Source: a virus. From it: a stretch of DNA of 64,000 bases. The notes beneath the pieces are model-generated. The model was not told the origin of the DNA, made no database searches, and worked only from the letters and a program-made list of their open reading frames with translations. The translations under genes were made by a program, and so were the position numbers. Below are positions 1,941 through 64,000 of the stretch, one piece after another. The DNA is taken from the IMG/VR virus record IMGVR_UViG_3300032053_011398; one strand, 5' to 3'. Numbering within the stretch: position 1 is the first letter of the stretch; each line of letters opens with the position of its first letter.

Positions 1941-3281
1941 GTGGCTCAATCTGGCAATACCAACCTGGAAGGCCGAACGGTCGTAGAAATCGAGCTAAGG
2001 CTGCCAAATAGCAAGATCATCCCGTTCAGCAAGATCAACGTCGTCCACAGTAAGTCCATCATCACGGAGGGCCTGAAGATGCCGAGCCAACACGAGCTGT
2101 GGGTTCAGGCCCCAACGACAGACTACGTGGATGGCCTGATCCGCTTCGCCCAGTCCCAGGGCACGCCGAAAATCCGTTACCGGATTGGCGTCGGACTGCC
2201 AGGCCAGATGGCCTACCTGCCCTGGCAAGACTCAATTATCACCAGCCTGGGCGCGGCCATCGACGGCGTAGGCAAAAGTGCCGGTCATTTTGTCCGGCTG
2301 AGCTTGTCGGATTATTTGTTTACAGTTACACGCCGGACGAAGGTCGTGACTCGAAAGGGAAAAATCAGCGCCATCGTGGCTCAGATTGCCGAAGAAAACG
2401 GCATCGCCAACACCGTCATCGAGGAAACCGTGGGCGAAGGCATGTGGATTCAAAGTTTTGTTGACGATTTCGACTTCATCCTGCATCGCATGGTGCCGCG
2501 TGCCATCAACGCCAAGGGCCGGGGCAACTACAGCATCTACGTCCAGGACAACACGCTTCATTTTCACTCACCGGACTACCATGCCGCGCTCAAGGAGCTG
2601 GTCTATTACCAGACCAACAACATTGGACTGACGCAATTGGACGAGAGCCAAAACCTGCTGGAAGCGGGCGCATCCGGCGTGCGCCTGGTCGTTTACGATC
2701 CCTATACCGGCCAGATGAAAGAAATCGCCTCCGATCCGGCCAAGGCTCTCAAGCTGGGCAACGTCATGCACTCGTTGGCCAACGTGAAGGGAGCCGACCT
2801 GAATTATCCATTCCATCTGAGCACGAACGCCCCTACGGAGGCCGAGAACATGGCACAGACCATGTATGAAAATGCGCGGGCGCAAATCCTGGGGATCAAA
2901 CTCGACGTGGCTCACTCTATTTTTCTGCGCGTCGGCGACATCGTGCGCATTATCATCAGCCCGTCCTCTGACAAGTCCACCGTTTGGTCTGGCACCTACC
3001 AGGTCACCAACGCCTGCTACATGATTGAGAGCGGGGCCATGTTGTCGTCGTTCATCGCCAAACGGGGCGAATTTCAAACCAGCAGCGCGGCGGCGACCTC
3101 GCTCCAGGTTCTTGGGGAAACAGTCATCATCAGCGACCAGGAAGCTCCGGGCCAGGCGCTCAACCTGAAAGCAATACAAAGCTCCGAGCTTGCGCACGGA
3201 GCTGGTCAATCTGCTTTTACTTCGGTATTCTCGACGACTCAGAGCAAGAGCGCAGCTCCGAATCCGACACCGACGTATTAA
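1941..3281 (+). CDS. putative baseplate hub / GpD-like tail protein
   Basis: GKISAIVAQIAEENG, WIQ..DDFDFI, IYVQDNTLHF and LRVGDIV..WSGTYQV segments typical of hub proteins. Confidence 0.6.
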   Translation: MAQSGNTNLEGRTVVEIELRLPNSKIIPFSKINVVHSKSIITEGLKMPSQHELWVQAPTTDYVDGLIRFAQSQGTPKIRYRIGVGLPGQMAYLPWQDSIITSLGAAIDGVGKSAGHFVRLSLSDYLFTVTRRTKVVTRKGKISAIVAQIAEENGIANTVIEETVGEGMWIQSFVDDFDFILHRMVPRAINAKGRGNYSIYVQDNTLHFHSPDYHAALKELVYYQTNNIGLTQLDESQNLLEAGASGVRLVVYDPYTGQMKEIASDPAKALKLGNVMHSLANVKGADLNYPFHLSTNAPTEAENMAQTMYENARAQILGIKLDVAHSIFLRVGDIVRIIISPSSDKSTVWSGTYQVTNACYMIESGAMLSSFIAKRGEFQTSSAAATSLQVLGETVIISDQEAPGQALNLKAIQSSELAHGAGQSAFTSVFSTTQSKSAAPNPTPTY

Positions 3282-3766
3282 ATGGTCGGGAATGGGGCGG
3301 GCACTACTACGCCTGGGCCTGCGTGGTAACTCTTGCTCCACAGGCTAGGGGCACCAAAGGGATCAGTGCGGCTCATTGCCATCTGCTCCCACTTCAGGCG
3401 GGAATCCAATTGGGCGCGAATCGCGCCCGCGCCGCCGACGCACTTGATCTCGATAAACGGAGCGTTAATGGTGAAATCCACGACGCGCGTGCCTAGAGGC
3501 GCGATGCCATATTGGGGGGTGATCGACGTTCTTGGATCGGCTGAGCCATCACCGTAGCTCTGCTGAACCTGGAAGAACAAAGTCGTGCCATTGGTGACGT
3601 TTTCAATGGTCAGGTGGACTTTGCTGTCCTCCAGGACATAACCCGCGTAGTTGGTTCCGAACGAGTAGTCGGCAACCCGCAATCGGCTGCCGACATAGCC
3701 CGAAACCATCGGGACTTGAACCCAAGTCGTTCTTACCATTGGTTCAGGATATGCGCCGGGTGTCAT
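3278..3766 (-). CDS. hypothetical protein (beta-rich, possibly virion)
   Basis: ORF tightly coupled to the upstream gene. Confidence 0.65.
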   Translation of the reverse strand: MTPGAYPEPMVRTTWVQVPMVSGYVGSRLRVADYSFGTNYAGYVLEDSKVHLTIENVTNGTTLFFQVQQSYGDGSADPRTSITPQYGIAPLGTRVVDFTINAPFIEIKCVGGAGAIRAQLDSRLKWEQMAMSRTDPFGAPSLWSKSYHAGPGVVVPAPFPTI

Positions 3767-41917: not shown

Positions 41918-41958
41918 AAGTCTGGCACACGGTTAAAATGTGTGCTCTTTGTTGAAAT

Positions 41959-61378: not shown

Positions 61379-61454
61379 TGGTGGAAGTGAAGGGACTCGC
61401 ACCCTCAACCCCCTGCTTGCAAGGCAGGCGCTCTACTAATTGAGCTACACCCCC
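61379..61454 (-). tRNA. tRNA-Ala(TGC)
   Basis: G3-U70, loop CTTGCAA. Confidence 0.9.
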
Positions 61455-61459
61455 GAAAT

Positions 61460-61533
61460 TGGAGCGGGTGAGCGGTAACGATCCGCCGTATCAGCGTTGG
61501 CAACGCCGCGCTCTGCCATTGAGCTACACCCGC
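61460..61533 (-). tRNA. tRNA-Gly(GCC)
   Basis: Loop TTGCCAA, U73. Confidence 0.88.
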
Positions 61534-61535
61534 AT

Positions 61536-61612
61536 TGGGGCGAACGAGGAGATTTGCACTCCCAACGGTCGGACTCACAATCCGAGGCTCTGCTAATTGA
61601 GCTACGTTCGCC
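61536..61612 (-). tRNA. tRNA-His(GTG)
   Basis: G-1/C73, loop TTGTGAG. Confidence 0.88.
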
Positions 61613-61800
61613 ACTCTGAAAATCAAAGCCCCACGGCCTCCACCTATGCTCGTGGATTGGGCCGTGGGGCATTTCAACAAAGAACAACACACTTCCATCA
61701 AGATTTCCACTGGTCTCCCAGTCTTGAAGCCACAGCATTCACGGTGGTCGTTTACCGGATTATCGGCCCGGCTCTCGGCTCCATCCGGAGCATGTGTGCT

Positions 61801-61845
61801 TAAAACTGAAAACCCCCGCACTCTTTCGGGTAGCGGGGGTTTTCA
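61801..61845 (-). terminator. attenuator terminator upstream of the first tRNA
   Basis: TGAAAACCCCCGC..GCGGGGGTTTTCAGTTTT. Confidence 0.8.
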
Positions 61846-61861
61846 AAATCTGGTTGGTCCG

Positions 61862-62002
61862 CTACCCTACTACCTCACCTGGTTCGCGTGTGCTACGGGT
61901 GGCAAAGCACAACGACGTGCCAGTATCCCACCCTTGGGCCAGGGCAGAATACTGCGCCCAGCTATTGGCAGGTTTCGCTGACACGCTATGCAACTTCATC
62001 AT
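61862..62002 (-). CDS. putative 46-aa leader peptide of the tRNA array
   Basis: MMKLHSVSAKPANSWAQYSALAQGWDTGTSLCFATRSTREPGEVVG*; ATG 7 nt after the -10 box; stop within the antiterminator strand. Confidence 0.65.
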   Translation of the reverse strand: MMKLHSVSAKPANSWAQYSALAQGWDTGTSLCFATRSTREPGEVVG

Positions 62003-62009
62003 CGCGGTG

Positions 62010-62038
62010 AGTCTAAATCGTTTTCGTAAACGGTGCAA
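62010..62038 (-). promoter_or_regulatory. sigma70-type promoter of the tRNA array
   Basis: TTGCAC-N17-TAGACT with phased A-tracts upstream. Confidence 0.75.
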
Positions 62039-62126
62039 GAACTTTCACAACTTTTTAGCAACTTTTTAGCAACTTTTTTCGTAAACACAAACCACTGGGC
62101 CACAACGAGGAGCAACGAATACGCGC

Positions 62127-64000
62127 TTATTCTTCCAGATTTTTCTGCACGACTGGCATTGGAACACCCATCATTTGATACAATTCCTCCTCCGAAATGA
62201 CCCGCGTGCCGTGCTTCCTCGCGCCCTCCGCCTTGTTATTGCCCCCGCCCGTGCCTTGCACCAGGAAGTCCACCTTCTTGGTCACCTGCCCCTTGACGAC
62301 GCCGCCGTTCTGCTCGATCAACGCGCTCACATCATCGCGCCGACCGCTCTGGAGTGCTCCGGTAATGCAGAAAGTTTTTCCACCGAGCACGCCTCCAGCC
62401 TGCTGATCCTCCTCGAAGTAAAATCCACAATCAGCCAACATCTCCAGCTCCTCGATGTTCCGCGTAAAATAGGTCAGCAACTCCGCCGTGGCGACTTTCC
62501 CGATCAGCTCCTCGACTTCGTGCTGGTATTGCTCGATTCGTTGCAGCGGTGACAGCCTTTTTTGCTTTTCGTCCTCCTCGTTGATCGGTCGGCTGAACTT
62601 GGTCGCCAAATCCTGGCAGCTCGTCTTGCCAATGCCCTCAATGCTCAGCGCCGAGAGCTTGCGCCACAGCGGGCCGTTCTTGGCCGCTGCCAGCCCCTCC
62701 CTCATCTTCCTGGCCGTCGCGGGCTTGAGGAAGCTGAAGTCGGCGATGGCGAACAAATCGGATAGTTTCTTAACGCTGGCCTTGTCCATCAACTGGCGCA
62801 CGGTCGTATCCCCGCAGCCGTCGATGTCAAGCGCATCCTTGCTCACCGCGTAAACCAGCCGGGCGAACACCTGGTCATCGCACTCCGGGTTCACACAGTA
62901 GGAATGAACCAGGCCCGTGGGGCGCTCCAGGGGCGTGGAGCAGCAGGGGCAGGTTTTGGGCATCTGGTAGCTCTGGTTGGGGTTCTTTTTGGTCGGCGAG
63001 GGCCGGGCTAAGCCGACCACCTTGGGGATCACTTCGCCGCTGCGCTGGACGAGCACGTAGTCGCCCACGTCGATGCCGAGGCGGTCCAGCTCGTCCTGGT
63101 TGCAGAGCGAAGCGCGGGCCACGACGGCTCCGCCGAGGCTGACCGGCTCCAACTGCGCGACCGGCGTCACCTGGCCGGTCTTGCCCACCTGAACGAGCAC
63201 GCCAGCCAGCCGCGTTTCCTTGGTATCAGGTGGGAACTTATAGGCCGCGCCCCATTTGGGCGCACGCTCGCCCTCACCCAAGTCGCGCTGCTTCTCCATG
63301 GAATTAACCTTGATAACCAGGCCATCGGTGTCCAAATCGAGAGCCTTCCGGTAAGCGTCCAGGTGATGGATGGCCGGGATCAGGTCAGCGTCGGCCATGC
63401 AGGTCGTGTAAGGCAACCCTGGCATGTCCTGGCGCACAGGAAGCGTCATCGTAGTGGGGAAGCCCAAGGTTTCCAGATAGTCGAGCAGCGACTCCTGGGT
63501 GGTGACGCCGGGCGGCAGGTCGGACGGGACGCTATAAGCCGCGAAGCTGAGTTTGCGCTTGGCGACCTCCCTGGAATCCTTGAGCATCATGCTCCCGGAG
63601 GCCCCGTTGCGCGGATTGGCCAACCGGTCATTCTCCGAAACACCCTGATTGTAGGCGCTAAACGAAGACAAACTCCAATAAACCTCGCCGCGCACCTCGA
63701 TGGTCACCGGTTTGCGGAGCGTCAGGGGGATCGAGTGGACGGTGCGAGCATTCTCGGTCACGTCCGCGCCCTCGACGCCGTTGCCACGGGTGAGCGCCTG
63801 GACGAGCTGGCCTTCCCTGTAGCTCAGGTGCAGGCTGAGGCCGTCGATTTTCATTTCGAGGATAACCTCCTCGCTCTCCAGGCCCGCGAAGAAAGTCGCG
63901 GTCTCGTTGGCGTTGTTGATGTTATCTAGCGACAACATCTTGACCTTGTGCCGGATTTTCCGCAACCCGTTGGGGGTCGGACAGCCGACCCGCGTGATAG
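62127..64000 (-). CDS. ligA: NAD-dependent DNA ligase (5' end outside window)
   Basis: MLSLDN, KIDG, TRGNG, EVRGE, DGLVIK, AYKFP, GEVIP, zinc finger, BRCT. Confidence 0.97.
   Translation of the reverse strand, partial: ITRVGCPTPNGLRKIRHKVKMLSLDNINNANETATFFAGLESEEVILEMKIDGLSLHLSYREGQLVQALTRGNGVEGADVTENARTVHSIPLTLRKPVTIEVRGEVYWSLSSFSAYNQGVSENDRLANPRNGASGSMMLKDSREVAKRKLSFAAYSVPSDLPPGVTTQESLLDYLETLGFPTTMTLPVRQDMPGLPYTTCMADADLIPAIHHLDAYRKALDLDTDGLVIKVNSMEKQRDLGEGERAPKWGAAYKFPPDTKETRLAGVLVQVGKTGQVTPVAQLEPVSLGGAVVARASLCNQDELDRLGIDVGDYVLVQRSGEVIPKVVGLARPSPTKKNPNQSYQMPKTCPCCSTPLERPTGLVHSYCVNPECDDQVFARLVYAVSKDALDIDGCGDTTVRQLMDKASVKKLSDLFAIADFSFLKPATARKMREGLAAAKNGPLWRKLSALSIEGIGKTSCQDLATKFSRPINEEDEKQKRLSPLQRIEQYQHEVEELIGKVATAELLTYFTRNIEELEMLADCGFYFEEDQQAGGVLGGKTFCITGALQSGRRDDVSALIEQNGGVVKGQVTKKVDFLVQGTGGGNNKAEGARKHGTRVISEEELYQMMGVPMPVVQKNLEE

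Follow-up and report, generated by a model that had tools for sequence, protein, structure and literature searches.

A candidate ribosome-mediated attenuator heading a tRNA unit in a phage genome

What role could a short open reading frame (ORF), followed by an intrinsic terminator, play immediately upstream of viral tRNA genes? The question is raised by the minus strand of a 64,000-nucleotide (nt) stretch of the IMG/VR virus record IMGVR_UViG_3300032053_011398 (hereafter, the window), where the 3' end of a NAD-dependent DNA ligase gene (stop at 62127) is followed, in this order, by an A-rich region, a promoter, the ORF and the terminator, here termed T1. A first-pass annotation of this DNA had proposed that the position of a ribosome on the ORF decides whether T1 folds, thus gating the tRNA genes beyond it. 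To answer the question, the leader was compared with its relatives and its folding was modelled. The feature is real and conserved and, in our judgement, is probably a ribosome-mediated transcription attenuator without regulatory codon runs, which senses translation and heads the first tRNA unit in a lineage of uncultured jumbo phages.

Anatomy of the leader and its conservation in relatives

The elements that carry the argument are listed here in the order of transcription.

62010-62038, minus strand: sigma-70-like promoter, TTGCAC-N17-TAGACT, with a GTTTACGAAAA box within the spacer
61862-62002, minus strand: leader ORF, 46 codons plus TAG, near-leaderless, starting 7 nt after the -10 hexamer
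61919-61955, minus strand: internal hairpin "helix b" of the RNAalifold consensus, ~15 base pairs (bp) in relatives, inside the ORF
61859-61867, minus strand: segment 2, GGGTAGCGG, which includes the stop codon and forms the 5' strand of the antiterminator
61837-61858, minus strand: conserved spacer CGGAC..AACCAGATTTT.., the antiterminator loop, the 5' part of which may serve in relatives as 3' strand of a pause or anti-antiterminator helix
61828-61836, minus strand: segment 3, CCGCTACCC, which forms the 3' strand of the antiterminator and overlaps the top of the T1 5' arm and the loop
61802-61843, minus strand: intrinsic terminator T1, with an A-tract, a GC-rich stem, a GAAA-type loop and a U-tract

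The promoter hexamers TTGCAC (62038-62033) and TAGACT (62015-62010) are separated by a 17-nt spacer, the ORF extends from ATG (62002-62000) to TAG (61864-61862; predicted protein P0001), and the arms of T1, AAAACCCCCGC (61843-61833) and GCGGGGGTTTT (61819-61809), are followed by a U-rich tail reaching 61802. The window ORF draws on 35 distinct codons for 19 amino-acid types, with no codon repeats or runs. The first-pass annotation had described the promoter, the ATG, the 46-codon ORF, its stop, the complementarity and T1 at these coordinates, and every sequence statement it made is correct. A simple consensus scan did not flag the window promoter, which matches 7 of 12 consensus positions and falls below the threshold; despite this, a TTGCAC-like -35 element, a spacer of 16-17 nt and a TAGNNT -10 element are kept in all nine leaders compared.

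These nine leaders are that of the window and those designated L001, L011, L012, L013, L014, L015, L033 and L034. Many relatives of the window ligase, 45-79% identical to it, were present on contigs of ~220-260 kb in a large protein collection; seven leaders were retrieved from the DNA around such relatives and L001 from IMG/VR, and the leader-bearing phage contigs measure ~220-250 kb, with ligases 56-79% identical to that of the window. Scans of IMG/VR by ligase, by peptide alignment and by four DNA patterns retrieved a single true relative, the contig of L001, while a DNA search of GenBank phages gave matches to tRNAs only, the ligase relatives found there being at most 35% identical. Rejected as chance matches were L002, L003, L018, L019, L036 and L037 from IMG/VR, the four candidates L006-L009 from a metagenome pattern scan and the 13 candidates L020-L032 from a scan of a genome collection. 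In L016 and L017 other genes follow the ligase, and no leader or tRNA was found within the stretch examined. In L034 and L015 other genes are interposed between ligase and leader, and the leader still adjoins tRNA genes; since it stays with the tRNAs when the ligase is separated, the element belongs to the tRNA genes and not to the ligase.

The start codon lies 7-11 nt past the -10 element in all nine leaders, and because this leaves no room for a Shine-Dalgarno sequence a leaderless or near-leaderless mRNA is expected. Across homologs the ORF comprises 46-49 codons (62 in L001, counted from the first ATG). Its frame is free of stops in the 8/8 leaders counted, where each other frame holds 2-7 stops, and is open in L015 too; moreover, all the insertions and deletions within the ORF are multiples of three, including one of 39 nt inserted in L001, whereas those right after the stop are not. 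As judged from the alignment, the leader ORF is under selection to be translated.

The peptide follows another course. Variable alignment columns at codon positions 1, 2 and 3 amount to 32, 31 and 38 of 44 in the ORF, compared with 110, 90 and 167 of 178 in the neighbouring ligase, of which the last 200 codons from the same genomes served as control, and the ratio of synonymous to non-synonymous codon changes is ~0.18 in the ORF versus 0.75 in the ligase. The amino acids drift almost freely, whereas the reading frame and the positions of start and stop stay fixed, and for this reason the pattern is read from the alignment as the signature of a regulatory ORF, one that counts through being translated and not through its peptide. 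The Gly, Leu, Glu and Pro codons of the leader are nonetheless invariant even at degenerate sites; of the 58 residues invariant in the ligase, only 5 have codons invariant in this way. Such invariance of degenerate sites indicates, in an alignment of this kind, a constraint at the RNA level. Indeed, RNAalifold places the invariant nucleotides of the ORF in helices, and helix b explains the invariance of the Gln-Gly-Trp-Asp codons.

As a separate observation, the heptamer CGAACCA occurs twice in most leaders, once inside the ORF and once just past its stop, and complements the canonical tRNA T-loop GGUUCG. The window copies lie at 61890-61884 and 61855-61849 on the minus strand, the second one reading CCAACCA.

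Terminator, antiterminator and the position of the ribosome

Segment 2 (GGGTAGCGG) is perfectly complementary, over 9 nt, to segment 3 (CCGCTACCC). When the 37 nt surrounding the window stop were shuffled, 4 of 2000 shuffles reached a complement of this length, and the next-best complement to the T1 arm elsewhere in the window leader is of 5 nt. Eight leaders show 8-13 nt of perfect Watson-Crick pairing between the two segments and L015 shows 11 bp with a 2-nt bulge, the best complement elsewhere in the leader being of 4-7 nt across homologs. In the eight leaders measured, the end of segment 2 falls within an interval around the stop, from 2 nt upstream of the first base of that codon to 5 nt downstream of it.

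The sequences of the two segments fall into three classes, each fitting its own partner alone, and cognate pairs match over a mean of 9.9 nt versus 6.5 nt for cross-lineage ones. In the window the register is shifted: the ancestral pairing decayed and was re-created 6 nt further 3'. When the nine leaders are aligned, 85.6% of the cells of the 10-pair helix are standard pairs, compared with 29-53% when the partners are slid by 1-3 columns; double changes are seen at three pairs, and the covariation score was matched by 1 of 500 shuffles. T1 is present with its U-tract in all nine leaders and its stem shows compensatory changes. The attenuator geometry put forward in the first-pass annotation is hence kept in the eight relatives with compensatory changes, the ORF staying open while the peptide drifts, and the alignment of related leaders it had recommended as a check came out in its favour for both the helices, which covary, and the stop, whose position is conserved.

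Thermodynamically, the switch is competent. The T1 hairpin of the window folds at about -25 to -29 kcal/mol; across the leaders, the antiterminator duplex (-16 to -23 kcal/mol) and T1 (-14 to -26 kcal/mol) are of comparable stability, the antiterminator being stabler than T1 in L001, L033 and L034 and weakest relative to T1 in the window. A ribosome was then introduced into the model by ending the transcript at the T1 loop, before the 3' arm, keeping 28 nt around the A site unpaired and moving the ribosome codon by codon. With no ribosome, the probability of the antiterminator was 0.94-1.0 in all nine leaders; with a ribosome up to about seven codons before the stop it was at least about 0.6 and mostly at least 0.8; with the A site within the last 6-8 codons or at the stop it was ~0, again in all nine. 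By this measure ~85% of the ORF is predicted to be sensitive, and a stall nearly anywhere, or failed initiation, to favour read-through. The behaviour anticipated in the first-pass annotation, with termination when a ribosome reaches the stop and read-through upon stalling or missed initiation, is in this way reproduced by the masked folding of the nine leaders. Antitermination as the default state of a transcript without ribosome is predicted on the basis of equilibrium folding.

A further helix, GUCCGU:ACGGAC, would surround the stop and enclose segment 2, and is predicted to fold in seven of nine transcripts ended before segment 3. Both its strands are invariant, so that no covariation can be scored, and the antiterminator outcompetes it at equilibrium.

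From the anatomy, the covariation and the thermodynamic modelling we infer the following mechanism. A host-type promoter would start an mRNA with its 5' end at or near the AUG of the 46-49-codon ORF, the last codons and the stop of which lie in segment 2 and could pair with segment 3, that is, with the 5' arm and loop of T1. A ribosome keeping pace with the polymerase would occupy the last 6-8 codons or the stop as segments 3 and 4 emerge, and would mask segment 2; T1 would then fold and transcription would end after ~195 nt. Should the ribosome lag, stall at an earlier codon or be missing altogether, segments 2 and 3 would pair, T1 would be blocked, and the polymerase would pass through a second element and a second hairpin (T2) into the genes for tRNA-His, tRNA-Gly and tRNA-Ala. 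As there is no codon run and the peptide is unconserved, the quantity sensed would most likely be the overall speed or capacity of translation, and not one amino acid. The leader would then work as a negative-feedback homeostat, in which slow decoding leads to more phage tRNA.

The downstream unit and competing readings

Beyond T1, the following elements separate the leader from the tRNA genes.

61693-61801, minus strand: element 2, the conserved stretch from T1 to T2, which contains small hairpins that covary and lacks a conserved ORF
61672-61692, minus strand: U/G-rich block of 20 nt, nearly invariant, whose core TGTTCTTTGTTGAA is the same in eight of nine leaders, L015 having diverged
61619-61670, minus strand: hairpin T2, with strong covariation in a stem of 11-16 bp and a U-rich tail that is interrupted; tRNA-His follows after 7 nt
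61379-61611, minus strand: genes for tRNA-His(GTG), tRNA-Gly(GCC) and tRNA-Ala(TGC), directly downstream, tRNA-His starting at 61611

Element 2 matched no Rfam family at an E-value below 1, and the U/G-rich block is the most conserved part of the leader. T2, whose hairpin proper spans 61670-61628, was absent from the first-pass annotation. In several homologs the tRNAs begin 7-20 nt past T2, and the interval from T1 to the tRNAs offers little room for a sigma-70 promoter and contains no recognisable one. Because the tRNAs start so close to T2 with no promoter in between, T2 would have to be at least leaky; it could terminate leakily, protect the 3' end of a leader RNA or serve as a signal for processing.

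The leaders of the relatives also precede His, Gly or Ala tRNA genes. In the window the unit comprises only these three before a convergent ORF, the other 24 of 27 tRNAs being located in separate blocks interspersed with genes on both strands, and no further cassette of terminator and mini-ORF was found before the remaining tRNA blocks of the window. The earlier statement that the leader gates the tRNA array is consequently too broad; it would apply to the three tRNAs placed directly downstream, with T2 intervening. Two side observations concern this region. In L033 (2967-3620), a start resembling the 5' half of a tRNA follows T2 directly and runs into an ORF with faint HNH_3 similarity (3006-3620); no tRNA was called there by ARAGORN, and the locus may represent a tRNA gene split by an insertion or intron that bears an endonuclease. 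In L011 (5230-5490) and L012 (5063-5190), a conserved GC-rich stretch without ORF, structured in appearance, lies between tRNA-Gly and tRNA-Ala.

Several points weigh against attenuation in the simple form given above. The tRNAs are separated from T1 by T2, for which a search across the homologs revealed no conserved antiterminator. In the window, the antiterminator spans only the top 4 bp of the T1 stem and T1 is stabler by 8-9 kcal/mol, and by these models the window copy may switch poorly. Minimum-energy folds of the full-length leaders contain T1, and read-through would therefore be a kinetic outcome. The GUCCGU:ACGGAC helix could act as a pause hairpin or as a trp-like anti-antiterminator, reversing the default predicted for a transcript without ribosome. 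The strongly conserved RNA blocks in the ORF and before T2 are superfluous to a simple model, and the sample is small, as the nine leaders represent about 5-6 independent lineages. Finally, a matching of the leader codons to the phage tRNAs has to be rejected, since 22 of 46 leader codons (48%) are readable by the 27 phage tRNAs versus 62% (standard deviation 3%) in 33 long ORFs. The same lack of enrichment bears on the anticodon-nuclease defences that the first-pass annotation had named as a possible trigger, a link that is hypothetical.

Since the codons are unmatched to the phage tRNAs, a general sensor is favoured, although the conserved codons may have a specific role. In that case the attenuator hardware would be the same and the ribosome would stall at the invariant Leu(UUG)-Cys, Arg(CGU) or Glu-Pro codons 8-16 before the stop, at the His, Gly or Ala codons, or at a nascent-peptide arrest motif, with GUCCGU:ACGGAC making untranslated transcripts terminate. 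The Leu, Glu and Pro residues are invariant in all nine peptides, Cys and the Arg codon are present in most, every peptide holds at least one His codon, and the helix forms in seven of the nine shortened transcripts. However, where a residue is invariant its codon is too, even at degenerate sites, which points to a constraint on the RNA and not to the identity of the amino acid or tRNA; no codon run is present, His, Gly and Ala together make up an unremarkable 11 of 46 residues, and the antiterminator beats the helix in equilibrium folding. We regard a specific sensor as unlikely.

A different use of the leader is suggested by a second occurrence of the U/G-rich block.

41938-41957, plus strand: inverted copy of the 20-nt block, 2 nt past the last tRNA of the region (tRNA-Gln ctg)

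The inverted copy is single in the genome and lies ~20-40 nt upstream of a conserved gene for a 199-amino-acid protein with weak HNH similarity. The same arrangement is found in the genome of L001 (L001:8298-8317, L038:1448-1466), these being the two genomes checked, whose ligases are 65% identical, and the tRNA island enclosed between block and inverted copy measures 20-29 kb. At the RNA level, the leader and the far end of the island therefore hold a complement of ~20 nt. The pair could represent a small RNA and its target, a long-range RNA stem, or a boundary of the island at the DNA level.

On this basis the main products could be trans-acting RNAs, of ~195 nt when transcription ends at T1 and of ~375 nt when it ends at T2, with the attenuator choosing the isoform and the gating of tRNAs being secondary. 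The longer RNA would carry the U/G-rich block beside a hairpin and a U tail, as in an Hfq-type 3' module, and would pair with RNA just past the last tRNA. Such a reading accommodates the conservation of the block, unsurpassed in the leader, the strong covariation of T2 and the placement of the reverse complement beyond tRNA-Gln, upstream of a conserved gene, in both genomes, and it has a precedent in the dual-function attenuator RNA and peptide rnTrpL/peTrpL (PMC6614838, PMC7968998). Yet the tRNAs lie 7-20 nt past T2 with no promoter in between and would need read-through of T2, while the complementarity comes from two genomes and could act on DNA; we consider it improbable that the RNAs are the main output. 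A bolder elaboration of the attenuator, conceivable though doubtful, is a viral translation-capacity homeostat with two outputs. The leaderless sensor ORF would read the pace of host ribosomes against RNA polymerase, and a lag, caused by tRNA cleavage by defence systems, starvation or host shut-off, would release both tRNA-His, tRNA-Gly and tRNA-Ala and a ~375-nt regulatory RNA, the 20-nt block of which would pair with the transcript from the far end of the 20-29 kb island. If true, expression or processing would be coordinated across the whole tRNA island.

The locus could also be read as an ordinary small-protein gene with its own terminator, the complementarity between stop region and T1 being incidental or serving mRNA stability. 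The conserved frame and the few invariant residues would suit such a gene, and the L001 copy was annotated as a hypothetical protein by one gene caller. Against it, variability is flat over the codon positions and synonymous changes are the minority (~0.18), the peptide found no relatives among 1.8 billion protein representatives beyond the locus of L001 itself and matched no Pfam family, the pairing shows covariation and has arisen anew in a shifted register, and the tRNAs downstream have no promoter of their own; we hold this reading to be very unlikely. Weaker still, and barely credible to us, is a ribosome-independent riboregulator, in which a protein, small molecule or tRNA would bind the leader in a T-box- or PyrR-like manner with the ORF as a by-product: the RNA helices and loop motifs conserved within the ORF, and the repeated CGAACCA, complementary to the T-loop, agree with it, but it leaves unexplained a frame kept open through many insertions and deletions and the conserved start at the 5' end and stop position, and no riboswitch, T-box included, was matched in Rfam at E-values up to 10.

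Returning to the ribosome-mediated attenuator, two further sets of sites bear on how its RNA might be started.

62045-62086, minus strand: A-rich upstream region with phased AAAAAGTTG repeats and the upstream copy of GTTTACGAAAA
7000, 47018 and 52457, plus strand; 54036, 50076, 44484, 39560 and 37534, minus strand: examples of GTTCT sites

Two exact copies of the GTTTACGAAAA box are present on the minus strand, one at 62031-62021 within the promoter spacer and the other 55 nt upstream at 62086-62076, and between them AAAAAGTTG is repeated three times in phase with an 11-nt period. Upstream copies of GTTTACGAAAA also occur 5' of the leader promoter in L011 and L012, and the box is a possible operator through which this promoter could be regulated. 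In both L011 copies the box reads GTAAAC, which is GTTTAC in reverse complement. A terminator-like hairpin lies directly 5' of the leader promoter in L034. As for the second set, 11 of the 141 occurrences of GTTCT lie 7-10 nt ahead of the ATG of a long ORF, compared with 24 of 2448 for permuted pentamers (~8-fold), with no Shine-Dalgarno sequence between motif and ATG, and the motif is probably a phage promoter element driving leaderless mRNAs. A leaderless leader ORF would fit this GTTCT/ATG arrangement of the phage. The 20-nt block was also considered as a copy of a GTTCT-type promoter and this was rejected, as the flanks of genuine GTTCT sites share nothing with the block.

Why phages carry tRNAs is debated, with codon compensation and escape from tRNA-targeting defences as the proposed reasons (PMC10264068). 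If validated, the attenuator would mean that a phage gauges the decoding performance of its host in real time and tunes its own tRNA supply, and would bring to that debate a directly testable regulatory prediction. Its compact design, with a leaderless ORF, no regulatory codons and ~85% of the ORF sensitive, could also be a blueprint for a generic sensor of translation stress.

Relation to known attenuators

The anatomical features that define ribosome-mediated attenuators are found in the phage leader, namely selection on a translated frame, an intrinsic terminator before the regulated genes, and a mutually exclusive antiterminator that could be masked at the end of the ORF. Of the features that define amino-acid-specific attenuators, a run or enrichment of regulatory codons and a match to a curated leader family are absent. 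The closest Rfam model is Thr_leader, matched over its full length at 28.3 bits, compared with a gathering score of 55, and its overall topology resembles that of the phage leader. The leader antiterminator is an uninterrupted helix, and the T-box model (RF00230) gave no match at E-values up to 10. A search of the published literature found no leader-ORF attenuation described for tRNA genes, either phage or cellular.

The trpL, hisL, thrL, leuL, pheL and ilv leaders likewise combine a short leader ORF, mutually exclusive terminator and antiterminator, and a stop placed for masking. Classical leader peptides are generally shorter than 46-49 codons. The phage leader differs from these systems in being near-leaderless, in lacking a run of regulatory codons and in controlling tRNAs instead of biosynthetic enzymes, and the 1:2 pause hairpin of the classical leaders has in it only a candidate counterpart, GUCCGU:ACGGAC. 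In the pyrBI and pyrE attenuators of E. coli, a closely coupled ribosome blocks the folding of the terminator, thus leading to read-through. The phage leader would share with them the dependence on the spacing between ribosome and polymerase, and not on a specific charged tRNA, but with inverted logic, as a ribosome at the stop would permit the terminator.

In rnTrpL/peTrpL of Sinorhizobium meliloti (PMC6614838, PMC7968998), which has no sequence relationship to the phage leader, the terminated RNA and peptide have a second function in trans, something that in the phage is only suggested by the 20-nt complementarity. Functionally nearest among published systems are the attenuators that respond to inhibition of translation through a leader ORF placed before resistance genes, such as the vmlR leader (PMC9226507) and others identified by Term-seq and PASIFIC-type prediction (PMC5314783). 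There, too, the leader ORF has no amino-acid runs and general stalling favours the antiterminator, which makes translation stress the signal instead of a single metabolite. The vmlR-type attenuators control ABCF, efflux and methylase genes on bacterial chromosomes and respond to ribosomes stalled by drugs at defined positions, whereas the phage leader is viral, has phage tRNAs as its output, and is predicted to be sensitive over ~85% of its ORF.

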